From Candidatus Adlerbacteria bacterium (GTDB lineage: Bacteria; Patescibacteriota; Minisyncoccia; Phycocordibacterales; SBAW01), in NCBI GenBank assembly GCA_029288895.1, contig JARIGK010000004.1, forward strand, positions 13,621 to 77,620: a DNA stretch of 64,000 nt. The letters run 5' to 3'. The notes beneath the pieces were generated by a model. That model made no database searches. It was not told where the DNA came from and saw only the letters and a program-made list of their open reading frames with translations. Within the stretch, counting starts at the first letter, position 1, and every line of letters begins with the position of its first letter. The translations under genes were made by a program, and so were the position numbers. Below, piece after piece: positions 14,162 to 62,400 of this stretch.

Positions 14162-15367
14162 CTACAAACGCACGCCCCACAGTGATTGGTCGCCGCGGGT
14201 AATAAACCAGAGATACTTGCCATCTTGTGACACGCCGAGTTGTTCTATTGGTGCATTTGCGCCACCTTCCCCAGGAAGGGTTAAAACAATACCATCACCA
14301 ATATTAGTTTTAAATAAAACTATACTGTCAGCGGTCTGTACAAGACCTTTATGCCATAAATCAACATAGCCTCCTGTTACATAATCAATTGGGAGGGCGC
14401 AGTAGAGGTCGGTACGAATAGTCGGGCTCCATACGCACTTCTCGGGCAGTGGGTCGTTTGCAAGCGGTGCGTCCTTCCCTGTGGCAATATCGTGCGAATA
14501 GGTTGTTGCAGTGTTGTCGGTATCTTGGGCAGTCTGATACACCACTTTAGAAAATACGCTGTTAGCTAATGCGACGAGCCCGTTTGCAAAGAGCAATGGC
14601 GTTTGTGTGCCTAATTTTGCATCTATCACGAAGGCGGCGCCTGGTACCCCAGCAGCAGACTTACTTTGCAACATAAGTGTTGATGTTGCTGGCCATGAAA
14701 TAAGCACTTGCGAAAGCGGTGATGAAAAGAGTTTCCTTGGATTTGTGCCATCGATATTTGCAGTGTAGCCGTCGCTGCCCGCATTGGTTGTGAGCATATA
14801 CACCACACTTCGTGCGTCGGGCGAGAGTGCGAGTGAGGAAATGTTATTTGGCAAAAACTGTACTCGCAATGGTGCGCCTGTGCTGCTGGTTGTGGCCAAC
14901 GCTAGGTACACGCTCTTGAGCGTGCCGCTGTCCATATACTGCAAGATAGTTGTTGTGCCTGCGTTGCCCCACAGCGCATCCACAACACTTGGGATGGTTG
15001 TATTTGAGACAGGTTTTGACGCAGCACCCGGTACATCAATTGCTTGGTCTAGAATGTGGCCATTGTCTGCCATCACATAGCGCGCAAGCGTTGTTGTTGG
15101 CGAGAATGTTTCTACAAACGTTGCACCCGCAACCGGGCCGTTTGCGATTTTAAATACCTTTCCTTGAGACGAGTTTGGGATTACTCCATTGCCGCCCGTG
15201 TCGTTCCCTGCTGGTGTAACTGATACATTTCCCCCTACCCCAAAGAAGTTTGTAACGGACGGCCCACTCTGCTGGCTTGTAGAGCGGAAAAAGAAGAATG
15301 TAAGTATTCCTGCGATAAAGAGGAACACAACACCCACGCATATGTAGTAGAAAATATTTTTATTCAT
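14162..15367 (-). CDS. hypothetical membrane-anchored protein (N-terminal TM, Ser/Thr/Gly-rich, beta-rich), last gene of the T4SS-like operon
   Basis: Likely start MNKNIFYY followed by one TM helix. ATGA overlap with the upstream gene. Confidence 0.45.
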   Translation of the reverse strand: MNKNIFYYICVGVVFLFIAGILTFFFFRSTSQQSGPSVTNFFGVGGNVSVTPAGNDTGGNGVIPNSSQGKVFKIANGPVAGATFVETFSPTTTLARYVMADNGHILDQAIDVPGAASKPVSNTTIPSVVDALWGNAGTTTILQYMDSGTLKSVYLALATTSSTGAPLRVQFLPNNISSLALSPDARSVVYMLTTNAGSDGYTANIDGTNPRKLFSSPLSQVLISWPATSTLMLQSKSAAGVPGAAFVIDAKLGTQTPLLFANGLVALANSVFSKVVYQTAQDTDNTATTYSHDIATGKDAPLANDPLPEKCVWSPTIRTDLYCALPIDYVTGGYVDLWHKGLVQTADSIVLFKTNIGDGIVLTLPGEGGANAPIEQLGVSQDGKYLWFITRGDQSLWGVRL

Positions 15368-16296
15368 TTGTCTGTGATGCAGCCTTGATTTGGCCCAATC
15401 ATATCGCAATTATACGTGCCAGGATCTTTCCCTTTATCTTGTTTTACGTACTCACTTGCGCATGCGTTCCCACCGTATTTAGTTCTTGATATTATGGTTA
15501 TAAGTGTGCCCCCCTTTGCTTCGCAAGCCGTTTGATTTTTTTGAATCTGTGCGCTTAGATCAATTTGTGCAGGCGGTGGTGAAACGCCAGCAGTAGTTGC
15601 GGATATGACACTGCACGCACCAACCAACTGTGGGTTGAGGGTATTTAAAATAATCCATGATGCGAGCAAAATAATAAGCCCCCATACGGCTGCTTTAATG
15701 CGATCACGTGCGGCAGAGCGCTTATCGACCACCTCTGACACCATATAGGTGACACCTGCGAGGACAAGAAAGAGCACGGCCAACATGGCACCCAAATAGA
15801 TGAAGAATTTGAAAATAAGGTCAATGATTTGGCAGAAATTTGAGCCGCCGGACGTTTGCCCAGGGAACGGTTCAAGCGGTGTGTATGTAAGGCTGTTGGA
15901 TACAATAACGCCCTGGCCCCCTTTTGCGTTAACAATGTGTTGTCCGCTCGCACAACCACTGAGAGGCACTGGTCCTACATATTCCGAGGGGGCTGCTGCA
16001 GAATCGTCTGTCCAACATCCCGCCTGTGTGTTGGGGTTACTTGAAGGAGTAATGTAATTTGTAGATGTGTTCTCAGGAGCGCACTCAGGCTCGCCTGCTT
16101 CTCGAATACACATGACGCCCTGCATATCAGAAGGGCAGCCCGTACCTTTTGAATCTTGAGCTTTGGGCCCAGGTGTCATCACGCCCTGTGCTACTGCAAG
16201 TGTTTTGCTGTAACAGTAGAACGCAGCGTGCGTATGGTGCGGTATCCCAAATACCACAAACATACCTGCCATAATTAGTAATTTTCTATACGTCAT
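15364..16296 (-). CDS. cysteine-rich secreted/membrane protein (signal peptide plus internal TM helix)
   Basis: 310 aa with signal peptide MTYRKLLIMAGMFVVFGIPHHTHA, about 20 Cys, and a central hydrophobic helix FKFFIYLGAMLAVLFLVLAGV. Translationally coupled to its neighbours. Confidence 0.5.
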   Translation of the reverse strand: MTYRKLLIMAGMFVVFGIPHHTHAAFYCYSKTLAVAQGVMTPGPKAQDSKGTGCPSDMQGVMCIREAGEPECAPENTSTNYITPSSNPNTQAGCWTDDSAAAPSEYVGPVPLSGCASGQHIVNAKGGQGVIVSNSLTYTPLEPFPGQTSGGSNFCQIIDLIFKFFIYLGAMLAVLFLVLAGVTYMVSEVVDKRSAARDRIKAAVWGLIILLASWIILNTLNPQLVGACSVISATTAGVSPPPAQIDLSAQIQKNQTACEAKGGTLITIISRTKYGGNACASEYVKQDKGKDPGTYNCDMIGPNQGCITDK

Positions 16297-42382: not shown

Positions 42383-43168
42383 ATGAATAAAATGACAAAC
42401 AAAAAAGAGAGACTAGGAGATGTAAGTTGGAAGTTGCAGCAACTTGGAATCCACGAGCATGATGCAGAGGTGTACATGCTTCTGCTCCAGCGCGGCGCAG
42501 AGATGAGTGGGGCTAAAATTGCCATTGCCCTATCGATGCACCGGCAGTATGTCTACCAAGGGCTGAAACGATTGCAGAAACTCGGGCTTGTAGAAGAAAT
42601 TCCAAATGGTGCACGAACGAAATATCGAGCTCTGCCACCGCAGCAACTTTCGCATGTTGCAAAAAAGAAACTGGAATACGCTGACTCTGCAGCGCGCGAG
42701 CTTGAGCTTATTTCTGCAATAGGTAGCGATCAGGATTTTGATATCTATCGCGGGACACAGCAAGTAATGCAATTTGAGGAGCAATTTCTCGATAGTCTTT
42801 CTGACGACGATGTGCAGTACATCATAGGTGGCAGCACACGCGCCTTCTTCCGTGTCTTTGGCGAACAGTACGAAGAGCTTTCTACTACTGCGCGTTCGCG
42901 CAATCTCAAAAGCTACTACTTGGCGTCACCAGATGATGTTGAGTTTTTGGAGCGTGTTAAAAAGGCGCAGCCCATGTACGAATTTCGTATCCTGAAAAAA
43001 CTTCCAGCAACGATTACGTCGACTGTGATCCGCAACAATAACGAAGTTAGTTTCTACAGTATGGGGAACCCGCCGCTTGTATATGTCATCAAATCTGAAA
43101 AAGTCGCAGCAGACTACAAAAAACTGTTCGACATTCTTTGGTCCATTGCCGAGCCGTATAAGGAATAA
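42383..43168 (+). CDS. TrmB-family transcriptional regulator (paralog 2)
   Basis: wHTH (AEVYMLLLQRGAEMSGAKIAIALSMHRQYVYQGLKRLQKLGLV) and TrmB-like C-terminal domain. Confidence 0.7.
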   Translation: MNKMTNKKERLGDVSWKLQQLGIHEHDAEVYMLLLQRGAEMSGAKIAIALSMHRQYVYQGLKRLQKLGLVEEIPNGARTKYRALPPQQLSHVAKKKLEYADSAARELELISAIGSDQDFDIYRGTQQVMQFEEQFLDSLSDDDVQYIIGGSTRAFFRVFGEQYEELSTTARSRNLKSYYLASPDDVEFLERVKKAQPMYEFRILKKLPATITSTVIRNNNEVSFYSMGNPPLVYVIKSEKVAADYKKLFDILWSIAEPYKE

Positions 43169-44482: not shown

Positions 44483-45283
44483 ATGAAGCTGATTTCCTGG
44501 AACGTAAACGGCATCCGCGCAGTGCACAACAAAAAACTCTTTGTGCCGTTTTTGGAAGAGTACAAGCCCGACATTTTATGTTTGCAGGAGACAAAAGCAC
44601 ACCAACATCAAAGCGAAGTCGATTTGCCCGACTACGAAGAGTACTGGAATAGTGCCGAAAAAAAGGGATACAGCGGCACAGCGATTTTTACAAAAACAAA
44701 ACCGCTCTCTGTCATACTTGGCATCCCAGAGGACATCGCAAAAAAATATAAGTTGAACGACGACGGCTACGGCGACCCAACAAAAGAGGGCCGCGTTATC
44801 GCGGCAGAATTTAAAAAGTTCTACGTGGTTACGGTGTATACGCCCAACTCCAAAGACGATCTCTCGCGCCTCACACTTCGCCACAAACAGTGGGACCCAG
44901 CGTTTTTGGCATACATGGAGCGTTTGCAAGAATCAAAGCCTGTCTTATTTTGCGGCGACTTAAACGTGGCGCACACCGCCATCGACTTAGCCAACCCCAA
45001 AGCAAACGTCGGCGAACATGGCTTTACCGACGAAGAACGCGAAGGCATCGACAAAATTTTGAAGGCTGGTTTCATCGACACATTCCGCCACCTGCACCCC
45101 GAAACACTTGGCGCCTATACGTGGTGGACGCACTGGGCAAATGCTCGCGCACGCAACGTCGGTTGGCGCATCGACTACTGGTTCGCTTCAAAAAAACTCG
45201 CGAAACATATAACAAGGGCAGAAATCTTGCCCGAAGTGATGGGCTCCGACCACTGCCCCGTACTCCTTGAGCTAGACCTCTAA
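44483..45283 (+). CDS. xth: exodeoxyribonuclease III (AP endonuclease)
   Basis: MKLISWNVNGIRA..., catalytic DLNVAH and SDHCPV motifs. Confidence 0.9.
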   Translation: MKLISWNVNGIRAVHNKKLFVPFLEEYKPDILCLQETKAHQHQSEVDLPDYEEYWNSAEKKGYSGTAIFTKTKPLSVILGIPEDIAKKYKLNDDGYGDPTKEGRVIAAEFKKFYVVTVYTPNSKDDLSRLTLRHKQWDPAFLAYMERLQESKPVLFCGDLNVAHTAIDLANPKANVGEHGFTDEEREGIDKILKAGFIDTFRHLHPETLGAYTWWTHWANARARNVGWRIDYWFASKKLAKHITRAEILPEVMGSDHCPVLLELDL

Positions 45284-46210
45284 CAAAGGGTCGATAAACT
45301 TCCACTGCGCACGGATATATTCTATCGATGGGAAGAGCGTGTGGTCGCCGGCCATTGCAGCCCTAAGTAACAGTTCGTATTCCGGAATTTTATTTGAATG
45401 CTCGCTGAATATTTTTATTGAGCCGTCTTTGAATATAAGTTCGACTTCTTTTTTATTTTCTGGCATCCGCTTCCCTGCTTCGAGAATAATTTTTATATCC
45501 CCTGCTCTCGTTTCAATTTTGAAATACGTTTCAGTCTCTGAATCTGCCGCAACACCTTTGGTGTCTTTGTAGCCGTCGTACTGCGTGCGTTCAATTGTTG
45601 TAGGCGCATCGGGCGTTGGCAGCGGCACAAGCTGCTTCAAAATCTGCAGCATGTGGTTTTGGCCGACATCGCGCAGCGTGCCGAGTTTGTCGTATGTGCT
45701 CCCCCGCTTCTCTACCCCAGCAGTTTCGAGCAGGCGGATGTGAATTTCTGCAATCGCTTCCCTCTCAGTATGTAACTCCCCTAACTCGCGCACCCAGTCT
45801 TTGGCCGCGTAGTGGTCGTTGATAAAAATATTTTGCTCGTCGGTGATGTCTTTGAGTAACGCATACAATTCCTCGGCCTCTTCCCCACTTCGGCCAAATG
45901 GCTTCTCGAGCATGATTTTTACATCCCGGCTAAAGCCTGCCGCTTTCATATTCAGGAGCGCTTCTTTATAGAGCGCCGGTGCGATGCAGAAATAAAACAG
46001 CGCCTCCTCCCCTGCCAGCTTTTCTTTTATATCCAAAAACGTCTGTAGCTCGCTTGTGTCGCCCTGCACAAAATCAAACTGTGATGGGATGTTCACTTCG
46101 TTCCGCGGCTTGCGCGAGACTCCAATAACGTCCAACTGCAGCTTCTCTAACGCTGGGATAACCTTCGCCCTCATCAAATCCCCCGTTACCCCGAATGCGA
46201 CGAATTTCAT
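45272..46210 (-). CDS. glucose-6-phosphate dehydrogenase-like protein, truncated (312 aa versus about 490 expected)
   Basis: G6PD N-terminal NAD(P) fold (GVTGDLMRAKVIPAL), EKPFG motif, DHY(A)AK and RDVGQNHMLQ motifs. Lacks most of the C-terminal domain. 12-nt convergent overlap with xth. Confidence 0.5.
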   Translation of the reverse strand: MKFVAFGVTGDLMRAKVIPALEKLQLDVIGVSRKPRNEVNIPSQFDFVQGDTSELQTFLDIKEKLAGEEALFYFCIAPALYKEALLNMKAAGFSRDVKIMLEKPFGRSGEEAEELYALLKDITDEQNIFINDHYAAKDWVRELGELHTEREAIAEIHIRLLETAGVEKRGSTYDKLGTLRDVGQNHMLQILKQLVPLPTPDAPTTIERTQYDGYKDTKGVAADSETETYFKIETRAGDIKIILEAGKRMPENKKEVELIFKDGSIKIFSEHSNKIPEYELLLRAAMAGDHTLFPSIEYIRAQWKFIDPLLEV

Positions 46211-46272
46211 ACTCTAACTATACGCCTCCCAAAAGAAAAAGCCGTCCCGATGAGCGGAACGGTTTTTGTGTC

Positions 46273-46539
46273 CTAGAACACACTCAGGACGTGGCCCCAC
46301 CATTCTTGCTGGAGCAGCCGCGGGTCGATTGTGGAGAGTGTACAGTGATGCCGGAGCATAAACCCACTGCCGCCAGAAAAAAGTATGCAGCCAAGATCCG
46401 CAATGAGGAAAATGGGCATCAACAACGGGAAAGGCCTTTGTCTGAGAAGCCCATTTCCGTAGTCCGAACAAAAGAAGAGCGTACAAGGCACTGCAGGAAA
46501 ACAGAGTGCCCACAGCAGAACAGTATCTTGAGTACACAT
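46273..46539 (-). CDS. small hydrophobic Cys-containing protein (88 aa) preceded by repeat-leader copy 1
   Basis: MCTQDTVLLWALCFPAVPCTLFFC... with SD aaggga. In frame inside track ORF 46273..46617. Confidence 0.35.
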   Translation of the reverse strand: MCTQDTVLLWALCFPAVPCTLFFCSDYGNGLLRQRPFPLLMPIFLIADLGCILFSGGSGFMLRHHCTLSTIDPRLLQQEWWGHVLSVF

Positions 46540-46555: not shown

Positions 46556-46632
46556 TATGAAAGTACTTCTATTCGAACGTTTTGCTCTATGAATCCACGA
46601 ACCATTCGCAGACTCAATTGAGAGAAGAAGAT
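46556..46632 (-). repeat. leader repeat copy 1 (divergent): core GAAAGTACTTCTATTCGAACGTTTTGCTCTATGAATCCA ... CAATTGAGAGAAG
   Basis: About 35/39 core identity to copies 2 and 3. Lies in the 5' region of the small gene 46273..46539. Confidence 0.55.
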
Positions 46633-46654: not shown

Positions 46655-47347
46655 CTACCCTTCCTTAGTTTTAAGAACAAAGGCAATAAAATCCGGATGT
46701 GCTTGGGTATCGAGTACCTCGCTTTCCGCAATGTCCAGAATCTGGAGTCCGTGCTTCTTAAATAGCTGTATGTAGTACGACAGCGGGCGGTGGTAGTCAG
46801 TAAATTCGATGCCGTTTTCATGCACAATCTTTTTATACTTGAATTCTTTGTCGTACTTTGGGTTCCACACATGTGAACGGATGCGTTTTGTTACAATGCC
46901 AACAGTTAAATAGTCGCTGCATGGGTTGCAAAGACTCACAATAATGGGCGCGCCATCTTTTGCGAGAATTTTTAAATTCTCAAGCATCACATCCTGGTCT
47001 TTTTTCTTGAGTATGCAGAGTACAAGGTTAGATGTTACAAGATCGAACTTTCCGGCAAGGGTCGGAAGCTTTTTTACAAATTCTGTGTTGGTATAAAACC
47101 TAGGTTTTGTATATTGAGATTTTGCTTGTGCCACCATTCCATCGGCTTCGTCGAAGGCCTCAGTCGCATATCCTTTCTGTGATACTGCGTCTGCAAACTC
47201 TCCCCATCCGCAGCCATAGTCGAATGCTGTTCCAGACTTTGGGGCGTATTTTTTAATAAGCGAAAATAGTTTTTCATTCAAAACGCGGTTTTTTGCGTCT
47301 TGGATTTTCGGTGCCTTTTTAGATAATGTATTCCATTCGTTTGCCAT
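46655..47347 (-). CDS. class I SAM-dependent methyltransferase (standalone paralog of the C-terminal domain of the upstream fusion protein)
   Basis: Motif I FDYGCGWGEF. About 50% identity to residues about 570-800 of the 804-aa neighbour. Confidence 0.75.
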   Translation of the reverse strand: MANEWNTLSKKAPKIQDAKNRVLNEKLFSLIKKYAPKSGTAFDYGCGWGEFADAVSQKGYATEAFDEADGMVAQAKSQYTKPRFYTNTEFVKKLPTLAGKFDLVTSNLVLCILKKKDQDVMLENLKILAKDGAPIIVSLCNPCSDYLTVGIVTKRIRSHVWNPKYDKEFKYKKIVHENGIEFTDYHRPLSYYIQLFKKHGLQILDIAESEVLDTQAHPDFIAFVLKTKEG

Positions 47348-47351
47348 ATAG

Positions 47352-49766
47352 TTATTTTTTGCGGAGCACAAAGTAGATAAAGTCAGGGAAGAGTTGTGTG
47401 CCCAAGGTGTCGCTTTCAGCAATGTCTACAATCTCGAGACCATGTTTCTTGAAGAGTTCGACATAATATTCAAGCGGGCGATGATAGTCTGTAAACTCAA
47501 GGCCGTTTTCATGCACAATTTTAGTATGCTGGAATTCTTTTTCGTACGATGCGTTCGCCGGAAGTATACGATGCGTTACGATGCTGTCGCGCATGTCGTC
47601 AAAGGCCGGGTGGCAAAAACTTAGTAGCAGCGTGCCATTATCATTGAGCAAGCGCTTCATATTTTCTATCAACACCCCGTGCTCTTCTTTTTTGGTAATA
47701 CAGAGCCAAAGGTTCGAGTAGACCATGTCGAACTTATGCTCAAGTAACGGAAGTGTTTTGTAGAATTCTTCTTTTGTAAGGAAAGTCGGCTTTGTAAATT
47801 TCTTTTTTGCAGAAGCAAGCAGACGCTCTGATTCGTTAATTGCAGTCACAGCGTAGCCTTTGTCTGCAAGGATGTTTGCATGTTCGCCCCACTCGCAGTA
47901 GTAATCGAATATTTTCCCGCCTTTAGAAACATATGTGCGCACGAGTTTTGTAAATATTCCATCGAATACAAGGCCTTTTGCCTTTTGAATTTTCTTTGTC
48001 TGTGCCGCAATTGTTGACCACTCATTGGCGATAGCTTCCATGCGCGCCTCACGACTTGTCATATGTGTTGGTTTTTCAACGCGGAAGCACCCAACGTATA
48101 GCACGTCGATACCAGTACGCAGGAAGGTGTTTAGTGCGTCGCGCGGAGTCTCTGGCACCGATTCGTTGTCATTAAGTGATGTGTTTAACACAATTGGAAC
48201 ACCAGTTTCTTTAAAGAAAGCTGAGATAAGTGCGTGATAGCGCCCGTTATCTTCTTTGCGTACTGTTTGGATGCGCGCACTACCATCAAAATGTGTCCCT
48301 GAAGGCATTTTATCTGGATGCAACACGTCAGCATTCAGTATCATGTACGGTGCAGGCACTGAAATGTCGAACCACTTTGATGCTTCTTCCGCGAGGACGC
48401 TTGGCGCAAATGGGCGGAAATGTTCGCGATGTTTAACTTTGTGATTCAGGATGTCTTTCATCTCCGGATTGCGCGGGTCTGCAACAATGCTGCGATTGCC
48501 CAATGCGCGCGGGCCCATTTCGCTACGGCCCTGAAACCATCCAACTACTTTGCCCTCTGCAATATCATGGGCCGCTGCCGTTGTCAGTGTTGAGAGATCA
48601 AGTTTTTTATGTGTGATCATGGGTTCATTCGAAAGCGCATCGAGTATTTCCGCTTCGCTATACTCCTTGCCTTGGTAGACGGACATCTCTTTACGGACTG
48701 CATGGGCGCTATCGAATACGTTCAGTGCCCAGAATGCATCGCCCAAACATTGACCGCTGTCCCCCGCTGCCGGCTGGATGTAAATGTTTTCAATGCCAGC
48801 GTGGTCGAGCAATGCACGGTTAGACACTGCGTTGAGTCCTACGCCGCCCGCGATGCAGAGATTTTTTATGCCAGTTTTCTCTACGAGGTGTTTTACTTTG
48901 TGTATGAGCGCGCGGTCTAATTCACGTTGTATGAGCCACGCTACATCTTCTATGTCCTCATTTATTTCTTCAGTTGGTTTGCGCGCAGATATATTTATGC
49001 CGTGTTCAGCAAGCCACCGCTCAATAACTTTAGGAGAACCTTCGCGTGTGCGGTCGCTGTCGGGCACTAAACATGTAACTTTACCTTCTGGCAAAAGCTC
49101 AAACACCCGCACGTCTTTAAAACGATTGCGTTTTGAGCCATATGCAGAAAGGCCCATCAACTTACCTGCATATTTGTAGCCTGGAAATCCGCAGAAATAT
49201 GTAAAGTAGCGATACACGCCACCAAATCCGTTTTCCTGCGGACCTATTTCCTCACGTTCAAGCAGATCTAATTCTTTTCCATTGCCTAAAAAGTAACTGC
49301 TGTGCTCGAACTGATTTTCCCAATAGCGGTTTTGATTTTTTGTTCCTGACTTAAAACTATTTCCAAGCATATTGCCATCGCCGTCGAGAACCATAACAAT
49401 CGCTTTTTCAAATGGTGATGGCCAAAATGCGCTATATGCATGCGAAAGATGGTGCCCGCACACTCGTATTTTTGAAAGCGGCACGCTAAACCCGCGTTTC
49501 TCGAGTTGTTTTTGAACATCCTGTTCGCGTGCTTTGATATCGAGACATGAGCTTGCGACAAAGAGATCTATGTCATCTATAGAAAGATTGTTGTTTTCAA
49601 GTATGTAATTGATGCTCTGCACAAAGCCGGCATCGTATTGCTTACGAGTAAGACGCTCTTCATTGATAAGCATCTTTACTTCCCCATCTACTACCAAACA
49701 CGCGCCGCCGTTGTCGAGCGGAAGCCCGTATGAGTTATGTTCTAGATTAAATCCCAGTATTTTCAT
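47352..49766 (-). CDS. NodU/CmcH-family carbamoyltransferase fused to a C-terminal class I SAM methyltransferase domain (804 aa)
   Basis: Carbam_trans N/C domains with CGHHLSHAYSAF and the Kae1/YrdC-like fold. C-terminal FDYYCEWGEH methyltransferase domain. Confidence 0.8.
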   Translation of the reverse strand: MKILGFNLEHNSYGLPLDNGGACLVVDGEVKMLINEERLTRKQYDAGFVQSINYILENNNLSIDDIDLFVASSCLDIKAREQDVQKQLEKRGFSVPLSKIRVCGHHLSHAYSAFWPSPFEKAIVMVLDGDGNMLGNSFKSGTKNQNRYWENQFEHSSYFLGNGKELDLLEREEIGPQENGFGGVYRYFTYFCGFPGYKYAGKLMGLSAYGSKRNRFKDVRVFELLPEGKVTCLVPDSDRTREGSPKVIERWLAEHGINISARKPTEEINEDIEDVAWLIQRELDRALIHKVKHLVEKTGIKNLCIAGGVGLNAVSNRALLDHAGIENIYIQPAAGDSGQCLGDAFWALNVFDSAHAVRKEMSVYQGKEYSEAEILDALSNEPMITHKKLDLSTLTTAAAHDIAEGKVVGWFQGRSEMGPRALGNRSIVADPRNPEMKDILNHKVKHREHFRPFAPSVLAEEASKWFDISVPAPYMILNADVLHPDKMPSGTHFDGSARIQTVRKEDNGRYHALISAFFKETGVPIVLNTSLNDNESVPETPRDALNTFLRTGIDVLYVGCFRVEKPTHMTSREARMEAIANEWSTIAAQTKKIQKAKGLVFDGIFTKLVRTYVSKGGKIFDYYCEWGEHANILADKGYAVTAINESERLLASAKKKFTKPTFLTKEEFYKTLPLLEHKFDMVYSNLWLCITKKEEHGVLIENMKRLLNDNGTLLLSFCHPAFDDMRDSIVTHRILPANASYEKEFQHTKIVHENGLEFTDYHRPLEYYVELFKKHGLEIVDIAESDTLGTQLFPDFIYFVLRKK

Positions 49767-49808
49767 AGTTTTTCTTTATGAGTCTGCGAATTTAGTTCGC
49801 AGACTCAA

Positions 49809-50033
49809 TCAAGGGGAGAAATTACTTTCTCCCAGTTCATAGGTGAGAGCATGGCGCGTACCACTTTCGCAGTAGCGCTCCAGAAGCATTTCTGCTTCCT
49901 CGACCCTTCCCTGGCGGGTAAGGTACATGCACATCGCCTGAACGGTCTCGTCGTTCAAACGATGCTGCACCCAGCAGCGTTCGTCTCCCAAAATAGAGGA
50001 GACAATAACGCCGACGTAGACTTTATGAGCCAT
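49809..50033 (-). CDS. small hypothetical protein (75 aa) preceded by repeat-leader copy 2
   Basis: SD aaaggaggg then ATG (MAHKVYVGVIV...). The track ORF 49809..50114 extends into the repeat. Confidence 0.4.
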   Translation of the reverse strand: MAHKVYVGVIVSSILGDERCWVQHRLNDETVQAMCMYLTRQGRVEEAEMLLERYCESGTRHALTYELGESNFSP

Positions 50034-50073: not shown

Positions 50074-50150
50074 TGGAAAGTACTTCTATTTGAACGTTTT
50101 GCTCTATAAGCCATCGATTTCTACAATCAAAGGCTTAATTGAGAGGAGAA
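50074..50150 (-). repeat. leader repeat copy 2: TGTGTGGAAAGTACTTCTATTTGAACGTTTTGCTCTATAAGCCATC ... AAAGGCTTAATTGAGAGGAGAAGG
   Basis: 45/46 identical to copy 3 over the core. Lies in the 5' UTR of gene 49809..50033. Confidence 0.6.
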
Positions 50151-50246: not shown

Positions 50247-50642
50247 CTAGAGGCGACACACAATCTCATCTTCTGGTTCCCACGGGAGGCCTTTAGGGCC
50301 CCGTAAGTCCCACTTGTGAGACCATGTACCATCGACTTTTAGGTCGATAGTACATACGTTTCCACAAAGCATGAGAAGGTGAAGTTTTCTAGATTGTTTT
50401 TGCCCCTTTAAGGCATCCACAATCGTAAAAATGTCGGCTAGATCACACCTTGCACGGCCAGCTTTTTCGACAAGTTTCCATACTTTAGAAACAGGCGAAG
50501 TCTCTGTGAGATAGAGACTACGAGCTGGCAACTTAACCAAGCGAACCAACTTGATCTCCTGGCGAGTATCCATGACCGTAAGGTCATAGTAGAGTTCGGC
50601 GAAGATAGGGAAGTTGATAGCGGCGGCATCGATACGGGCCAT
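50247..50642 (-). CDS. hypothetical protein (131 aa) preceded by repeat-leader copy 3
   Basis: SD gaggaaa. No family assigned. Confidence 0.45.
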   Translation of the reverse strand: MARIDAAAINFPIFAELYYDLTVMDTRQEIKLVRLVKLPARSLYLTETSPVSKVWKLVEKAGRARCDLADIFTIVDALKGQKQSRKLHLLMLCGNVCTIDLKVDGTWSHKWDLRGPKGLPWEPEDEIVCRL

Positions 50643-50681: not shown

Positions 50682-50777
50682 GTGAAAGTACTTCTATTTG
50701 AACGTTTTGCTCTATAAGCCATCAATTTGGTTGGAATTAAAGGCTTAATTGAGGGGAGGTCGATTGCTCGACCTCCC
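50682..50777 (-). repeat. leader repeat copy 3 plus adjacent perfect 10-bp hairpin (gggaggtcga-ttgc-tcgacctccc)
   Basis: Core identical to copy 2. The hairpin at 50754..50777 may terminate the upstream small gene. Confidence 0.6.
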
Positions 50778-50780
50778 GAA

Positions 50781-50927
50781 CTAGTTCTTCTGCCCTCGTG
50801 TGGCGATGAGGCCCCATACCAGTGCCACAACAACGACGGCAGCGATAAGGCAGATGATCACTACGGCGCCCTGGCCATCCGACTGAGACGCGGCATTGGA
50901 TACGGCGTATGCTTGGTAACCCTTCAT
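50781..50927 (-). CDS. small membrane protein (48 aa)
   Basis: MKGYQAYAVSNAASQSDGQGAVVIICLIAAVVVVALVWGLIATRGQKN. SD gaggagag. The motif CGCCCAATAGGGCAGAGGA upstream is shared with gene 50247..50642. Confidence 0.3.
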   Translation of the reverse strand: MKGYQAYAVSNAASQSDGQGAVVIICLIAAVVVVALVWGLIATRGQKN

Positions 50928-51072
50928 GACTCTCTCCTCTGCCCTATTGGGCGGTTTTTCGATGTACTGAGTGAACTGATATAAGAATAGCACGGTAAAA
51001 CAGTAATGTCAATAAATATTGATGATAAAAAATTGACAGAAAAGCATTGATAATGCTAGAGTTTTAGAGAAG

Positions 51073-51837
51073 ATGTCAAAAAATATTGATGATAATCCAA
51101 ATAAGGAGTTGCTGGCAAAGCTCGCGGAATTAGGCCTCTCCGATAAGGAGGCTCGGGTCTATATGGCCCTCCTGCCCCGACAGGATACGGGTACTTCTAA
51201 CCTTATTCGGGCCACCGGCCTCCATGGGCAGTTTGTATACACCGCTTTGGAGCGGCTCGAAGAGATGGGCCTGGCCAAACACGTGGTCCAAAACGGCCGG
51301 AAGAAGTTTAGTGCCGGCAGCCCCGAACGCATTCTGGCCTTGGTTGAGGAAAAGAAGCTCGCCGCCCAGCAGGTGGTCCGCCAGCTTGCACAGCAGTTTG
51401 CCGGCAAGCACGAACAGAGCTTCGAGGTCTTCCAGGGCGATACATCCTTTATTGCCCATGAGTTTGCCCTGCTTGAGGCCTGCCCGGATGGCAGCTCTAT
51501 AGACATCATTGCCGGCAGTGGCGACAAATATGTGGACATTTTTGGGGTGGAACTGAACGAATATGAGCGTATCCGTATAGAAAAGAAGGTCGCCTTGCGC
51601 TATATAAGCACCTCTGGCAACCAGAATTACTTGAAAATAATGGCTCAAACTAGGCCTTTTTTCGAATATCGGGTCCTCCCCCAGTCGGCGCCCCAGGTAG
51701 ACACAGATATATATGAGGACAAGATCAATTTTATGATATACGGCCAGCCCGTGGTCTCGTTTACGTTTACAAATAAGGAGGTGGCGAAGGGATACAAAGG
51801 CTTTTTTGATGTTTTGTGGAATTTATCCACTCAATAA
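51073..51837 (+). CDS. TrmB-family transcriptional regulator (paralog 3)
   Basis: wHTH (ARVYMALLPRQDTGTSNLIRATGLHGQFVYTALERLEEMGLA) and TrmB C-terminal domain. Confidence 0.7.
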   Translation: MSKNIDDNPNKELLAKLAELGLSDKEARVYMALLPRQDTGTSNLIRATGLHGQFVYTALERLEEMGLAKHVVQNGRKKFSAGSPERILALVEEKKLAAQQVVRQLAQQFAGKHEQSFEVFQGDTSFIAHEFALLEACPDGSSIDIIAGSGDKYVDIFGVELNEYERIRIEKKVALRYISTSGNQNYLKIMAQTRPFFEYRVLPQSAPQVDTDIYEDKINFMIYGQPVVSFTFTNKEVAKGYKGFFDVLWNLSTQ

Positions 51838-57250: not shown

Positions 57251-58087
57251 ATGACATCTGTCCCCGAAGAAATAAAAAAAGTGGTGGGGAACACAGAAGG
57301 GCCTGTCAGCATGATTTTGGCAGGCGTACACGGTGACGAATTGTGCGGCGTCTCTGCCCTGCAAGAGATTTTTAACTCTCTGGAGATAGAGCGGGGGACG
57401 GTGTTATATGGGTTTGGCAACCCCCGAGCCATTGCCACGGGGAAGCGCTTCGTCGAAAAAAATCTTAATAGGATGTTTAAACCCGATGCAGATCTAACTG
57501 ATGAAGAAAAACAAAGTTATGATTATGACCGTGCACAGTATCTAAAAAAATATTTCGATACAGCGGAGGCACTGCTCGATATTCATTCGAACCCCTGGCG
57601 CGAAGAGAAAACATTCGTCATATGTGAAAAGAATGGATTTGAACTAGCAGGATCTTTGCCGACAGACATTGTTGTATCGGGTTTTGATGCGGCGGAGCCG
57701 GGCGGCACTGACTACTATATGAATAGAGGGGGGAAGATTGGTATTTGTTTTGAAGCGGGCTATTTGGATGACGCGTTTTCGAGAGCCACAGCAAAAGTTG
57801 CAATAGAAAATTTTTTAGAAGCACGGGGGCATACCACACGCGCGATTTTGCCTCGTGCACAGAAAAAACTGAACGTATTTAAAAAAGGCCTCTCGCGCAG
57901 CGATGCGTTTGTTCTTACTCGACCATTTGCCAATTTTGAGGCGCTTAAAGAGGGGGAATTGATCGGAACTGATGGAGCTGAAGAAGTGCGAGCGCCGAGA
58001 GCGTGCCACATCCTATTTGCCCGCAATGGAAAGTTCAAAGGGGATGAAATTTTCCTCCTGTGCGATGAGACGAAGCCTGAGTGGTAG
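57251..58087 (+). CDS. succinylglutamate desuccinylase/aspartoacylase (AstE/AspA) family zinc deacylase
   Basis: ILAGVHGDE zinc-binding motif and overall AstE_AspA layout. Confidence 0.7.
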   Translation: MTSVPEEIKKVVGNTEGPVSMILAGVHGDELCGVSALQEIFNSLEIERGTVLYGFGNPRAIATGKRFVEKNLNRMFKPDADLTDEEKQSYDYDRAQYLKKYFDTAEALLDIHSNPWREEKTFVICEKNGFELAGSLPTDIVVSGFDAAEPGGTDYYMNRGGKIGICFEAGYLDDAFSRATAKVAIENFLEARGHTTRAILPRAQKKLNVFKKGLSRSDAFVLTRPFANFEALKEGELIGTDGAEEVRAPRACHILFARNGKFKGDEIFLLCDETKPEW

Positions 58088-58097
58088 TATTCCTAGT

Positions 58098-58865
58098 ATG
58101 GGGACCGAATCGAAATTTCTCACGAATCTAAAGAAGCTGGCGCTCTCTACCAAAGAGAGTATTGATTTAAGCGATTTTACTAACTATACAGAGAAAAATA
58201 TACATATAACAAAAGAACCGTTTCCTCATTTTATTGCAGAAAATTTCTTTAAACCGGAGATCTATGATGCCTTGTGTAAAGAATTTAATGCCGTTATGGA
58301 GCGCGGCTTATCCAATTCCAAAGGAGGAGATTTTAATAAATTCCACGCGTTTGATATTGACTATGATGGGTATCTCTATGTGCCTGCCCCGACGTTAGCG
58401 CGCGACAACCCGCTTCGGCTGTTTTACAGCCTCGAATGGAATATGTTTTTTTCAAAATTATTCCGACAATTTACATCGTTCGAGACATCGTTTGTGCTTC
58501 ACCATCACCCGCCAGGCGACAGAACGGGTTTTGTTCATCACGACTTTTCGGACAAACGATTCCACGAACGCTCGGTCCTTCTTAATGGAGTAATTGCGCC
58601 CGAAATAAAAACTGGCGCTGCAGCGCGCAGACGAGTAATTTCACTCCTTATATATATTAATAATCCTGTGTGGCAGGAAGGTGACGGAGGAGAGACGGCT
58701 ATCTATGCTGCAGATAAAACTATAGTGATAAAGAAAATACCTCCAATCAATAATACGCTGTTTGCGTTTCAGACATCGCCTGTATCTTTCCATGCCTTTC
58801 AGGCGAACAAAAAGGACCGCAACTGTCTTGTGCAATGGTTCCATATGCCGCCAGAATTACTCTAA
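58098..58865 (+). CDS. hypothetical protein, possibly 2OG-Fe(II) oxygenase/cupin-like
   Basis: VHHD (HxD) followed by a distal His. Weak assignment. Start at MGTESKF inside track ORF 57972..58865. Confidence 0.35.
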   Translation: MGTESKFLTNLKKLALSTKESIDLSDFTNYTEKNIHITKEPFPHFIAENFFKPEIYDALCKEFNAVMERGLSNSKGGDFNKFHAFDIDYDGYLYVPAPTLARDNPLRLFYSLEWNMFFSKLFRQFTSFETSFVLHHHPPGDRTGFVHHDFSDKRFHERSVLLNGVIAPEIKTGAAARRRVISLLIYINNPVWQEGDGGETAIYAADKTIVIKKIPPINNTLFAFQTSPVSFHAFQANKKDRNCLVQWFHMPPELL

Positions 58866-58869
58866 ACAT

Positions 58870-59466
58870 ATGCCGAAGAAAAAACTTTTATTTGTTGGAG
58901 CAGGCGGAGAGCTGGCATCAAAAGTTCTACCGCTATTGTCGAAGTCATATGACATCGTTGGTATTGCAGGTAGGCGGGATGATCTGCGCCCATATTGTGT
59001 TGAAATGTATAAAGGTAATTTACTTACCGGCTACCAACAGCTTTTTGAAACAGCATTTCGCGCACATCAATTCGATATAATTATTTGGAACCCTGTGCGT
59101 TATTTTTTTACTTCTTTGATGCAGAGTACGCGCGAAAGTTTACATACAGAATTTGATATTGCAGTTGCGCTCGCTGTCGAGTGTCTAAAAACAGCTCGCA
59201 AAGAGCAAAATTTTTCTGGCACATTTGTATTAGTTTCGAGCCTGTCCGCATTTGGGTACAGAAAAGATCTTGCCACGTATTCGATTGTAAAAAATGCTCA
59301 AGTTAGATTCGCCAAAGTGCTGGCCGAGGAATTGAAAGGTGCTGTAGTGGTAAAAATAGTTGCCCCTGGTTCTGTGCGGGCAATACCTACGGAAAGTCTG
59401 GGGAAAGCCTTTATTTCAAGCCTAGAAAATGAATATCCAGAGCGGGTCTTGTATACCGTTCAATAG
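58870..59466 (+). CDS. short-chain dehydrogenase/reductase (SDR)-like NAD(P)-binding protein
   Basis: Rossmann GAGGELASK near the N-terminus. Start inside track ORF 58762..59466. Confidence 0.55.
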   Translation: MPKKKLLFVGAGGELASKVLPLLSKSYDIVGIAGRRDDLRPYCVEMYKGNLLTGYQQLFETAFRAHQFDIIIWNPVRYFFTSLMQSTRESLHTEFDIAVALAVECLKTARKEQNFSGTFVLVSSLSAFGYRKDLATYSIVKNAQVRFAKVLAEELKGAVVVKIVAPGSVRAIPTESLGKAFISSLENEYPERVLYTVQ

Positions 59467-59557
59467 ACTTGCTTTTTCTTATAAAAATGTTATTATAAAT
59501 TACCCTAGAAATCTCTAGGATATCTCATCAACAGACAGAGAAGAGGGAGTTCTTTCC

Positions 59558-60016
59558 ATGCGTACCATTATTCTCGCTGGCTCCGCCGCCGTCGCGATGT
59601 CCCTGAGCGTATCCACCGCGTTTGCGGCAAGCCCCAACCAGGCGATCATCGACAAGAGCTGCTGGGGTTTTTACGATGCTGCGCTGGGTGGCAACGGAGT
59701 CAAGCTGGAACGGCCCGAAGCGGCGTTCAAGTTCTCGGTCAAGGCGGACGGCTCGTTCGTCTTCACTGCGAAGGCTGGTGCTGCCGCGCGCAAGAACTGG
59801 AATGGCGCCTCGGGCAACGACTACCTCACCCAGAAGGAGGCGCAGTACCAGCCGCTTCCTGACGGCGGCCTGCAATTTGCCAATCAGTCGGCGCATTCCT
59901 ACTACACGCTGACTCCTGCGGCTTCCCAGTCCGGCGACGCTCCTGGTTCGGTGCGTTTCTCGGTGCTGTACAAGCACAACCAGGGTACAGCCAACGGTGA
60001 AGCGTTCTGTAAGTAA
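59558..60016 (+). CDS. secreted hypothetical protein (152 aa), GC-rich relative to flanking DNA
   Basis: Signal peptide MRTIILAGSAAVAMSLSVSTAFAA. SD agaagaggga. Terminator hairpin gggcccg...cgggcc at about 60040-60075. Confidence 0.55.
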   Translation: MRTIILAGSAAVAMSLSVSTAFAASPNQAIIDKSCWGFYDAALGGNGVKLERPEAAFKFSVKADGSFVFTAKAGAAARKNWNGASGNDYLTQKEAQYQPLPDGGLQFANQSAHSYYTLTPAASQSGDAPGSVRFSVLYKHNQGTANGEAFCK

Positions 60017-60120
60017 CAGGTAGCGATGCCAGGGCGAGTGTTTGGGCCCGTATAGCGATATGCGGGCCTTTTCTTTTGGGAAAGCACTTTGTGCTTGTAT
60101 GATTACGGGGCTAACTTCAT

Positions 60121-61662
60121 ATGGAACCCGTTACACAATTTTCTCAAACTTTCAGAAAGGATAGATTTGGTTTTGAGAAAAATTACACTCTTTCTGAAGC
60201 TGTTGAGCTTTTCATAAAACCATGTGGTCGTTTTAAATCACCCCTCTCTTGGAAAGATAAGCTGGAAATATTCATAGCGAAATTCGTGAGCCGTTCGCGA
60301 ATTTTTAATACTATAGTGGCTCTCCCTGTGTACGATATTTCCCCTAACTGGCAAATACTTTTAAATTATCTCGCCAAAGAAGGTGTTATTGTAAGACCAA
60401 CATTCCATCCATTTTTGCAGCATAATGACTACCCTCCGTCCCATACGGTATATCTTGTGTCGCATCTTGATCAGAAGGTAACTGATGGGAAATTGGAGCG
60501 CGATCAAATCACTGCTTTTGGTAATGGCCCAAGATTTGAAGATGCGTATGGGAAAGCGGTTGGTGAAATGCTCGAGCGCTATACGCTCGCGCTCTTTCGA
60601 ATAAAAGATTTATTGTTTTGTTCGCGTGTGGAACTTGTACAAAAGGGGGAACTAGTCCTCGATATTAGTGCTAAGCCACAATTTCTGCCCTGGCAGAAAG
60701 AGCATTTTAAAGAGCTGGGCGCAACAGATCGCACGACGTTGTCGTGGGTTGAGGGCAGAGAACTTATTTCTAATAGGCGCGCCTACGTTCCGGCGCAGCT
60801 TATATTCTGGAGTCGAACTGTATTGGGTGCGAAGTCGGATATGGTTGTTCTGCAGCAACCTACAAGTAATGGGCAAGCAGGTGGGTTTACTTTCGAAGAG
60901 AGTGTTCTTTCAGCGATATATGAAAATGTGGAGAGAGACGCATTCCTCATATATTGGCTCAACACCCTTTCTCCGAAACGTATTGCGCTTGATAGTATTC
61001 AAAATCCCGATGTTGTTTCTGTAATTGCCTCGGCACAGCGGTATGGTCTGGATTTGTATTTTCTTGATACAACGAGTGATATCGAGATACCAGCTTGTAT
61101 ATGTGTTGTCATGGACAGGCGAGGCCCAGAACCACGGTTGGCGATGGGGGGCGGTGCCGGATTTGATATTCAAAAAAATCTCCTATCGAGCGCAAATGAA
61201 GCAATTAGCGTGGCGCAAAACAATTATGCGTTTGATGTGCCTAAGAACTACAAACCATTTTTAGATACAACAATTACAAAAAAAGAGCGTATGGGCTTAT
61301 GGCGCGGCTCTACAATGATTGAGCATTTTAATTTTTTCATTGGAGGGGAAGAGGTACCTCTTGAAGAAAGCCGTTTTGCAAACCTGGCGCGCACGTTTCC
61401 TTCAAAAAAAGAAGAATATTCATTTACACGTGAACTTTTTAAACACTTAGGAGAAGGGTACGAATTATATTGCTATCAAGCAAAACATGCAGTGCTTTCC
61501 AAATTGGGGTATGTGGTGACAAAAGTTGTCATACCTAAACTTGTACCTCTGTATTTGGCAGAGTATATGGCGACACTTGATGCGGAACGTTTGTATGAAG
61601 TCCCAAAAAAACTTGGGTTTGAAAACACCAAGCTCAATCCATGGCCCCATCCATTTCCATAG
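60121..61662 (+). CDS. YcaO-domain cyclodehydratase (TOMM/azoline-forming family)
   Basis: YcaO ATP-binding signatures: AVGEMLERY and PTSNGQAGGFTFEESVLSAIYENVERDAF (SNGxAxGxTxEEA...E..ERD). 513 aa with a roughly 140-aa N-terminal extension. Confidence 0.85.
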   Translation: MEPVTQFSQTFRKDRFGFEKNYTLSEAVELFIKPCGRFKSPLSWKDKLEIFIAKFVSRSRIFNTIVALPVYDISPNWQILLNYLAKEGVIVRPTFHPFLQHNDYPPSHTVYLVSHLDQKVTDGKLERDQITAFGNGPRFEDAYGKAVGEMLERYTLALFRIKDLLFCSRVELVQKGELVLDISAKPQFLPWQKEHFKELGATDRTTLSWVEGRELISNRRAYVPAQLIFWSRTVLGAKSDMVVLQQPTSNGQAGGFTFEESVLSAIYENVERDAFLIYWLNTLSPKRIALDSIQNPDVVSVIASAQRYGLDLYFLDTTSDIEIPACICVVMDRRGPEPRLAMGGGAGFDIQKNLLSSANEAISVAQNNYAFDVPKNYKPFLDTTITKKERMGLWRGSTMIEHFNFFIGGEEVPLEESRFANLARTFPSKKEEYSFTRELFKHLGEGYELYCYQAKHAVLSKLGYVVTKVVIPKLVPLYLAEYMATLDAERLYEVPKKLGFENTKLNPWPHPFP

Positions 61663-61665
61663 ACT

Positions 61666-62400
61666 ATGTACATAGATTTTTCAAAGCTCTTCCATAGAGC
61701 ATCAAAAGATAGCCGAGATGGTGGTAGGGTGCATATACCAAGAGATTCCGCCCAGTGGCCCGATGCCTGGAAGACAACTTTCTATAAAGCATATAAGTCG
61801 CTTCCATCTATTATTCTCTCTCATTCGGACTTGCGAGCAGATCTTTTCTCTACTATCGTTTCTCGAACCTCAAGGAGAGGGCCATACAGCGAGACGCTCT
61901 CCAAAGACGAGCTTGCAACAATCTTGCTTTATTCATGCGGAAAGAAAAAAAATAACGATGGAACGAATCGTGCGCAACCGTCAGGTGGAGGTCGATACCC
62001 AATAGAAGCGTATGTGTTGATGTTTCGTTCATTGCCAGACGTTCCTGCAGGCATCTATCACTACAATGTAGAGAATCATACACTTGAGCGTTTAGCAGCT
62101 AAAGAATTTACGAAAGAAGATATTGCAAGATTATTTTCATACGAGTGGATACAGGATAGTTCTGCGGCAATTGTTTTAACCTCTGCTTTTGAGCGCACAA
62201 AAATGAAATACGGCCAGCGCGGCTATCGGTATGCAATGCTTGAAGCGGGGCATATCGGCCAAAATATTTGCCTTATTTCTCAGGCTTTGAATGTTCAGTG
62301 TTGTCCAATGGGCGGAAGCTTTGATGAAGGGCTAGAAAACATACTTGGTATAGACGGCGAGGATGAAAGTCTCGTCTACACACTTGTTTTGGGGAAATAA
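61666..62400 (+). CDS. SagB-type FMN-dependent dehydrogenase (nitroreductase superfamily; azoline oxidase)
   Basis: PSGGGRYPIE (compare PSAGGLYP) and C-terminal EAGHIGQNICL...CCPMGGSFDE. ATG 3 nt after the YcaO stop. Confidence 0.8.
   Translation: MYIDFSKLFHRASKDSRDGGRVHIPRDSAQWPDAWKTTFYKAYKSLPSIILSHSDLRADLFSTIVSRTSRRGPYSETLSKDELATILLYSCGKKKNNDGTNRAQPSGGGRYPIEAYVLMFRSLPDVPAGIYHYNVENHTLERLAAKEFTKEDIARLFSYEWIQDSSAAIVLTSAFERTKMKYGQRGYRYAMLEAGHIGQNICLISQALNVQCCPMGGSFDEGLENILGIDGEDESLVYTLVLGK

Follow-up and report, generated by a model that had tools for sequence, protein, structure and literature searches.

Why would a bacterium keep two related methyltransferase (MT) sequences beside a single carbamoyltransferase (CT), one of them fused to it and the other free? 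The question is raised by a locus in the 64,000-nucleotide stretch of Candidatus Adlerbacteria DNA analysed here (contig JARIGK010000004.1; "the window" denotes this whole stretch), in which the gene for an 804-amino-acid (aa) protein, a CT core with a C-terminal class I MT fold, is followed by the gene for a 230-aa MT. We use the term psiMT for the fused MT-like domain, which has an altered S-adenosylmethionine (SAM) site. Comparison with relatives suggests that the enzyme of the pair is the free MT and that psiMT probably serves as an accessory without catalytic activity.

Layout of the locus

An earlier reading of this DNA, made from the sequence alone (the sequence-only reading), had described a CT–MT fusion followed by a paralogous MT. 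The listing of open reading frames (ORFs) in the window places two minus-strand ORFs exactly at the coordinates given there, translation returned the quoted motif strings FDYYCEWGE and FDYGCGWGE, and the Pfam domains of both the CT core and the MT fold of the 804-aa protein scored above their cut-offs. The longest frame of the downstream ORF is 46655-47422 on the minus strand; an ATG at 47347, 4 nt past the stop of the CT–psiMT gene, gives the 230-aa form, which is also the version in the public protein collection (identical product). A protein identical to the 804-aa fusion is likewise present in NCBI. An AlphaFold2 (AF2) model of the fusion, built from 34 homologues, had a mean predicted local distance difference test score (pLDDT) of 87.7. 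The parts of the two genes are as follows.

47352-49766, minus strand: CT–psiMT fusion gene, 804 aa (ORF; Pfam Carbam_trans_N, Carbam_trans_C and Methyltransf_11/25)
48717-49766, minus strand: Kae1-like transfer domain, residues 1-350 (TobZ alignment, invariant columns)
48072-48572, minus strand: YrdC-like domain, residues 399-565 (Carbam_trans_C matched along the whole profile, 1-170 of 170, E 6e-63)
48027-48065, minus strand: flexible linker, residues 568-580 (sole segment with pLDDT <50 in the AF2 model)
47355-48026, minus strand: psiMT domain, residues 581-804 (translation, clade analysis, fold search)
47883-47909, minus strand: psiMT motif I with Y623 and E625, FDYYCEWGE (translation)
47835-47837, minus strand: psiMT N644 (translation)
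47706-47708, minus strand: psiMT W687 (translation)
46655-47347, minus strand: free MT gene, 230 aa (ORF from ATG; Pfam; motif I FDYGCGWGE and D66)
47198-47224, minus strand: free MT motif I, FDYGCGWGE (translation)

An intact carbamoyltransferase core

The CT belongs to the class III (TobZ/NodU/CmcH) carbamoyltransferases, with an intact core and an atypical Asp at the general-base position. Pfam Carbam_trans_N (E 7e-40, 137.9 bits against a cut-off of 24) and Carbam_trans_C (E 6e-63, 211.8 bits against 27) both fall in residues 1-565. The closest solved relatives are the O-carbamoyltransferases TobZ (E 2e-61; it acts on tobramycin at the 6'' oxygen), VtdB (7xb6), NovN and GdmN, which matched at E 1e-45 to 1e-61 in sequence and structure searches, and a Foldseek search with the AF2 model gave target-normalised TM-scores of 0.81-0.83 to TobZ and VtdB (E ~1e-47). 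The sequence-only reading had made the same assignment, with a match confined to Kae1/TsaD-type enzymes as the finding that would speak against it. As an identity for the CT, a Kae1/TsaD tRNA enzyme was rejected: YgjD/TsaD reached just 1e-10 in Foldseek, compared with 1e-47 for TobZ, and TsaD profiles stayed below their cut-offs (17.7 bits versus 24.8 in Pfam; 20 versus 296 for TIGR03723). The phage 5-hydroxymethylcytosine (5hmC) carbamoyltransferase was rejected as the closest relative, being merely 24% identical (E 9e-18); cyanophage CTs are ~32% identical to the window CT. The NodU equivalog of NCBIfam, NF041651, scored 167.8 bits against a cut-off of 1000.

Like TobZ and other class III enzymes, the window CT combines a Kae1-like and a YrdC-like core (TM-score ~0.8) with a His2Asp2 metal site and equivalents of K443, M473 and S530; unlike them, it has Asp in place of the general-base His, and it is ~27% identical to them overall. 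Its metal ligands H105, H109, D128 and D336 align with those of TobZ, for which residue numbers take account of a PDB offset of 6 (checked on H14, K443, M473 and S530); in GdmN the ligands are H133, H137, D156 and D333 (PMC9633730). K445, M475 and S530 of the window CT align with TobZ K443, M473 and S530. No aligned clade member lacks the metal ligands or these three residues (75-77 of 77, the remainder being alignment gaps; 76-77 of 77 for K445/M475/S530 alone, with one gap at S530), and the roles of the metal-site and adenylation residues are those described for GdmN and TobZ (PMC9633730). The YrdC-like domain is predicted to form carbamoyl-AMP. The general-base position, H14 in TobZ and H27 in GdmN, is Asp18 in the window CT and D in 73 of 77 clade members in the sequence alignment; Asp18 could still serve as the base. 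BLAST of the CT N terminus against a TsaD from the candidate phyla radiation (CPR) gave no alignment over the Asp18 region.

One canonical and one remodelled methyltransferase

The two MT sequences, which the sequence-only reading had put at about 50% identity, are significantly similar: residues 579-804 of the fusion aligned with the entire 230-aa MT by BLASTP at 51% identity over 228 aa (E 6e-79). In Pfam, the free MT matched Methyltransf_25 (39.9 bits versus 27), Methyltransf_23 (39.3 versus 27) and Methyltransf_11, and residues 620-714 of the fusion matched Methyltransf_11 and Methyltransf_25 above cut-offs (37.7 bits versus 21.2 for Methyltransf_11). The NodS family PF05401 gave no match at E <= 0.01 for either MT sequence. 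The alignment combined 43 free MTs with the MT-like domains taken from 34 fusions, and in a neighbour-joining (NJ) tree the fused domain of the window falls in one clade of 26 psiMT domains, apart from all canonical MTs. Only three columns are conserved within each class yet differ between the 26 psiMT domains and the 51 canonical MTs; the SAM-site positions 625 and 644 were mapped through an alignment with phosphoethanolamine-MT (PMT).

Column 625: E in 96% of psiMT, G in 100% of canonical MTs; second Gly of motif I
Column 644: N in 96% of psiMT, D in 100% of canonical MTs; acid ending beta2, which binds the SAM ribose
Column 687: W in 100% of psiMT, V in 88% of canonical MTs; after beta4

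The second glycine of motif I and the beta2 acid are present in 51 of 51 canonical relatives and in 0% of psiMT domains. The first motif I glycine is gone from psiMT too, its place taken by Y, H, N or T, and replacement of both glycines (Y623/E625 in the window) and of the acid (N644) holds for 25 of the 26 clade members. Motif I FDYGCGWGE and D66 of the free MT, by contrast, are 100% conserved across the 51 relatives. On these alignments, psiMT is an MT fold with a remodelled SAM site, its canonical SAM-binding residues replaced, and the free MT is a canonical class I SAM MT, predicted to be active. The sequence-only reading had taken the fused copy for an ordinary MT; the conserved replacement of three canonical SAM-site positions contradicts this.

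The conservation of psiMT indicates that it has not been left to drift. Mean orthologue identity over five genomes is 51% for psiMT versus 46% for the free MT, and because psiMT orthologues are as conserved as those of the free MT, the domain appears to be functional rather than decaying. The two classes have 29 columns in common at >=95%, mainly in the C-terminal half (including P720, R733, Y741, K749, E753, N754, D760, H762, R763, P764, Y767 and Y768). The closest folds to psiMT are the small-molecule MTs 3d2l, GNMT, 3g5l, CypM and CcbJ (Foldseek, E 1e-12); the free MT found generic small-molecule MTs only in a PDB profile search, its nearest relatives being PMT, TehB, GNMT, CypM and CcbJ.

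The tandem duplication proposed in the sequence-only reading stands in so far as the two sequences are true paralogues, but it is not recent. Third-position identity among identical residues of the two window copies is ~0.5 throughout, without an outlier segment, and their synonymous sites are close to saturation. Since the copies also belong to different deep clades, the duplication is ancient; recent duplication or gene conversion between them was rejected on the same third-position and clade evidence, with no converted segment found. A search for standalone psiMT genes, limited by its word prefilter, returned only fusion fragments and canonical MTs.

Module architecture in relatives

Relatives were drawn from metagenome-assembled genomes of the Parcubacteria group, Uhrbacteria, Buchananbacteria, Paceibacterota and Moraniibacteriota, and the neighbourhood counts rest on 16 independent loci including the window. 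Here LOG denotes a LOG-like gene, a slash separates neighbouring genes and a hyphen joins the parts of a fusion.

CT-psiMT / MT: window, L016
CT-psiMT / LOG / MT: L001, L007
MT / CT-psiMT / LOG: L015
CT-psiMT / LOG, then contig end: L006
CT-MT (canonical) alone: L003, L004, L008
CT / MT: L009
CT / LOG / MT: L021
CT-LOG fusion / MT: L010, L018
CT / LOG: L017
CT alone: L011, L022

A canonical free MT accompanies the psiMT fusion in all five loci with enough flank (window, L001, L007, L015 and L016), whereas a separate MT accompanies the canonical CT-MT fusion in none of three (L003, L004 and L008); modules hold at most one canonical MT each. This distribution argues that psiMT is probably a non-catalytic accessory. 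CT and MT pairs without psiMT are common among the relatives.

Two partners recur with the module, a LOG-like protein that is a putative nucleotide hydrolase and a regulator of the TrmB family. A LOG-like gene adjoins or is fused to the CT in 8 of the 16 loci; CT-LOG fusions occur in L010, L018, P0077 and P0078, and a CT/LOG/MT operon in L021. The LOG-like proteins match PF03641 and PF18306 in Pfam and retain the GGxGTxxE motif (as GGFGTLxE), with NCBIfam scores of 40-60 bits that lie below the curated cut-off of 96. Because LOG enzymes free modified bases from nucleotides (PMC8989509), these fusions suggest a nucleotide-derived acceptor. The arrangement resembles IPT-LOG and LOG systems in that a transferase is fused or operon-linked, in the relatives, to a LOG-superfamily protein with GGxGTxxE; it differs in that the transferase is a carbamoyltransferase and not an isopentenyltransferase (IPT), and in that the LOG-like protein scores below curated cut-offs and is absent from the window. 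The partners of the window clade (MT, LOG-like protein and TrmB) likewise set it apart from class III CTs with their antibiotic gene clusters. Glycosyltransferase, flippase and polysaccharide or polysaccharide-export genes were module partners in 0 of 16 loci, and where L001 and L003 have peptidoglycan genes a few kb away, these are part of housekeeping clusters and not of a conserved neighbourhood. A comparison with defence systems gave just a weak, generic MT-level match to mad2, and we found nothing specific in the literature on a CT/LOG/MT module or a CPR carbamoyltransferase.

More distant CTs lean in the same direction as the LOG fusions: they are fused to ASCH domains or lie beside HIT, aminoacyl-tRNA synthetase-like or MccF-like genes. 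At L017 (5628-10030), in one Parcubacteria genome, a CT/LOG pair has been inserted where the ribosomal-protein operon ends, with secY on one side and adk on the other. Two HisRS-like paralogues flank the closest outgroup CT (L019, 925-9337; 45% identity) in a cluster that also has two radical-SAM genes, PqqD and an S66 (MccF-like) peptidase, and that looks like aminoacyl-nucleotide biosynthesis or the biosynthesis of a peptide made by ribosomes and modified after translation (RiPP).

Regulator and promoter

Upstream of the module, a divergent regulator gene faces a shared intergenic region.

51073-51837, plus strand: TrmB-family regulator, divergent from the module (Pfam TrmB, E 1e-10)
50984-51022, minus strand: promoter and candidate operator (promoter scan, conservation in relatives)

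The window TrmB shares 40-46% identity with the gene that lies divergently upstream of the module in L007, L010, L012 and L015 and is, by this comparison, orthologous to the module-side regulator of the relatives. The promoter scored 10 of 12 in the window scan, with an extended TG; its -10 element TATTCT ends at 50984, and a palindrome, TCAATAnnTATTGA, of the form TCAAT-N4-ATTGA at 51009-51022 overlaps the -35 element TTGACA. The arrangement ATCATCAAT-N-ATTGACA-N17-TATACT/TATTCT is common to the TrmB–CT intergenic regions of the window, L007, L015 and L012 (less clear in L010), and control of the module by TrmB is predicted from it and from the gene order. An operator-like 23-mer, ATGTCAAtAAATATTGATGATAA, at 51006-51028 recurs 67 nt downstream at 51073-51095, where it overlaps the beginning of the TrmB coding sequence, start codon included; the predicted TrmB promoter (51033-51062) lies between the two copies, which suggests that TrmB regulates itself through two sites.

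The window holds a second TrmB paralogue (42383-43168, plus strand), 25% identical to the module regulator, and in L018 a 16-kb span contains three or four TrmB genes, several beside methyltransferases. TrmB–MT pairs may recur as a CPR theme.

Proposed mechanism and alternative explanations

Taken together, we lean, by a modest degree, towards an accessory tailoring module under TrmB control, in which the CT, its psiMT accessory and the active MT work on one acceptor. The YrdC-like domain would make carbamoyl-AMP from ATP and carbamoyl phosphate, and the Kae1-like metal domain would pass the carbamoyl group to the acceptor. Tied to this core by the disordered linker, psiMT would no longer methylate; it may bind and present the shared acceptor or dock the free MT, its retained C-terminal half being the putative acceptor-binding half. 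The free MT would then methylate the same molecule that the CT modifies. The acceptor is most likely a cytoplasmic polar small molecule, and because the LOG-like partner recurs in relatives, a nucleotide- or ribosyl-derived compound is the leading candidate, which we offer as a lead.

The METTL3–METTL14 and Trm61–Trm6 pairs combine an active MT with a conserved degenerate-site paralogue kept for substrate binding or scaffolding; the degenerate paralogue of the window differs from these in being fused to a CT, and the substrates here are probably small molecules, not RNA. A functional, non-catalytic C-terminal auxiliary domain shapes the acceptor pocket of GdmN (PMC9633730), which is a precedent for the role proposed for psiMT; both CTs have an extra C-terminal domain, an MT fold in the window and a dimerisation domain in GdmN. 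The component enzymes are familiar; the novelty lies in the pairing of pseudo-MT with MT, in the link between CT and LOG and in the confinement to CPR bacteria.

Several observations weigh against this scheme. With Asp18 at the position of the general-base His, the chemistry may differ from that of the characterised O-carbamoyltransferases, and the window genes scanned, including ten further ones, yielded no carbamoyl phosphate source. The fused domain is still recognised by Pfam as a methyltransferase (37.7 bits, versus 39.2 for the free MT), and some active MTs, such as COMT, depart from GxGxG, so that psiMT may still bind SAM. CT-only proteins nest among psiMT fusions in the CT tree (NJ, without support values), which makes psiMT dispensable or its history more complex; it may have been lost repeatedly, as befits an accessory, or the history may be less simple. 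The window itself has no copy of the LOG gene, so the nucleotide lead rests on relatives.

The observations on the fused domain also bear on a scheme in which both MT domains are active, the fused one carrying out a second methylation with a non-canonical SAM site. Purifying selection on the domain, its continued recognition by MT profiles, and the fact that its substitutions are specific and conserved (E, N and W), unlike random decay, would all fit. Yet no module of any architecture has more than one canonical MT, all 51 canonical relatives are set apart from psiMT, without overlap, by the ribose-binding acid and the second glycine of motif I, and CT and MT pairs lacking psiMT are common; we consider a second active MT improbable.

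The sequence-only reading had suggested an acquired cassette for modifying a surface glycan or a small molecule, naming NodU/NodS as an example of a CT and MT pair. In its glycan form this would be a NodU/NodS-like cassette, with the CT and two active MTs decorating a surface glycan or oligosaccharide. The CT does belong to the NodU/CmcH/TobZ family, TobZ-type enzymes without the dimerisation domain use polar, sugar-like acceptors (PMC9633730), TrmB regulators are classically sugar-responsive, judged by the Pfam family name, and L001 and L003 have peptidoglycan genes a few kb away. As in NodU/NodS, a CT and a SAM MT stand side by side and, in our proposal, act on one molecule. However, the CT falls far short of the NodU equivalog cut-off (168 bits against 1000), neither MT sequence matches the NodS family PF05401, and there is no chitooligosaccharide synthase or other nod-like gene. 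Glycan genes partner the module in none of the 16 loci, those for peptidoglycan being housekeeping clusters, and the fused MT, one of the two copies, has an altered SAM site without the canonical residues. A glycan-decorating cassette is on this evidence quite unlikely.

Modification of a nucleic acid (tRNA, rRNA or DNA), in the manner of Kae1/TsaD or of the phage 5hmC enzyme, appears very unlikely. The CT fold derives from Kae1/YrdC, a member of the same Pfam family carbamoylates 5hmC in DNA, RNA and deoxynucleoside triphosphates (PMC8670742), which means that nucleobases and nucleotides can be substrates of the family, and among more distant relatives are the CT-ASCH fusions. Some neighbours are translation genes and tRNAs, which are expected by chance because CPR genomes are compact. 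But the window CT is far closer to TobZ (E 2e-61) than to the phage enzyme (24% identity, E 9e-18), the thymidylate-synthase-like dCMP hydroxymethylase that partners the phage enzyme is absent here, no nucleic-acid-binding domain was found, and the nearest folds to the MT are small-molecule MTs.

The nucleotide lead can be carried further, to a Parcubacteria-specific nucleotide pathway in which CT, LOG and MT make a novel carbamoylated, methylated purine- or pyrimidine-type metabolite, a possibility that we regard as speculative and rather unlikely. The CT would then carbamoylate a base or ribose, with Asp18 perhaps pointing to another nucleophile; in loci that have it, the LOG-like hydrolase would set the modified base free, in the way that IPT-LOG frees cytokinins; and the MT would methylate the released base, with psiMT as a substrate-presenting adaptor. 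Were this so, the product would serve these host-dependent bacteria as a signal, antimetabolite or salvage intermediate.

Composition and exchange

The cassette has a GC content of 0.450, against a window mean of 0.499 (standard deviation 0.026), and is the lowest 3.1-kb stretch of the window; just 0.7% of the 3.1-kb windows are as low. The GC profile thus bears out the low-GC segment described in the sequence-only reading. GC at third codon positions is 0.44-0.46 in the cassette versus 0.57-0.64 in neighbouring genes, and host-like (0.62) in the window TrmB. The CT gene likewise lies below its flanks in 13 of 13 related loci measured (for example, 0.39 versus 0.57 in L011 and 0.39 versus 0.48 in L008). 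The pattern agrees with the enzyme genes having been exchanged repeatedly among Patescibacteria, and hence with the acquired or accessory block that the sequence-only reading had suspected; an intrinsic composition bias is possible.

Small ORFs and a repeated intergenic element

Four small ORFs and copies of a ~75-nt hairpin-plus-tail element accompany the enzyme genes.

50781-50927, minus strand: small ORF, 48 aa, between promoter and CT; Shine–Dalgarno (SD)-like sequence
50247-50642, minus strand: small ORF, 131 aa, between promoter and CT; SD-like sequence
49809-50033, minus strand: small ORF, 74 aa, between promoter and CT; SD-like sequence
46273-46539, minus strand: small ORF, 88 aa, 3′ of the free MT; SD sequence
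46559-46629, 50076-50150 and 50684-50758, minus strand: three full copies of the ~75-nt element, intergenic
49783-49808: hairpin-only copy of the element, abutting the CT start

The 48-aa and 88-aa products look membrane-like, and a terminator-like hairpin (46242-46262) follows the 88-aa ORF. None of the four matched Pfam, two of the three upstream ORFs gave marginal PHROG/PADLOC matches (E 0.006-0.009), and tblastn found no match to them in the related loci. All four are co-oriented and have duplicated leader hairpins (GCCCAAATAGGGC then AGAGGA).

The ~75-nt elements separate the small ORFs. Their 28-nt core is near-exact across copies, with 0 matches expected by chance; the tail ATAGAGCAAAACGTTCAAATAGAAGTACTTTC is conserved, and the stem arms differ between copies by compensatory and G-U changes, which suggests structure at the level of the sense-strand RNA. 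The arm ATTGAGTCTGCGAA is common to the hairpin at the CT start and the copy 3′ of the MT and so brackets the low-GC CT–psiMT–MT block. Rfam has no family for the element, and a metagenome scan for the 28-mer gave 0 matches. It could be a terminator or leader module, a recombination site (perhaps attC-like) or a new cis-RNA.

Other features of the window

Directly downstream of the module, 45272-46210 (minus strand) encodes a truncated glucose-6-phosphate-dehydrogenase-like protein of 312 aa (160 bits versus a zwf cut-off of 400). Another low-GC stretch (0.43-0.44), at 57251-62400 on the plus strand, encodes an AstE/AspA-like hydrolase, a 2-oxoglutarate-Fe(II) oxygenase and a YcaO cyclodehydratase (60121-61662) and is possibly a small cluster of the RiPP or thioamide type, which would be an uncommon find in a CPR genome. 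At 15364-16296 (minus strand), a protein with a type IV secretion pilin domain lies in a long minus-strand gene block that probably encodes an apparatus like a type IV secretion system.

Significance

The enzyme and pseudoenzyme of this locus would be a clean natural case of a duplicated catalytic domain repurposed as the accessory of a different enzyme, and the CT-LOG Rosetta-stone link is a lead to an acceptor class undescribed for cellular class III carbamoyltransferases. In the tiny genomes of CPR bacteria, or Patescibacteria, genes for tailoring or secondary metabolism are very scarce; a CT/MT(/LOG) module that is conserved, exchanged and regulated in such genomes therefore likely serves their host-associated lifestyle.

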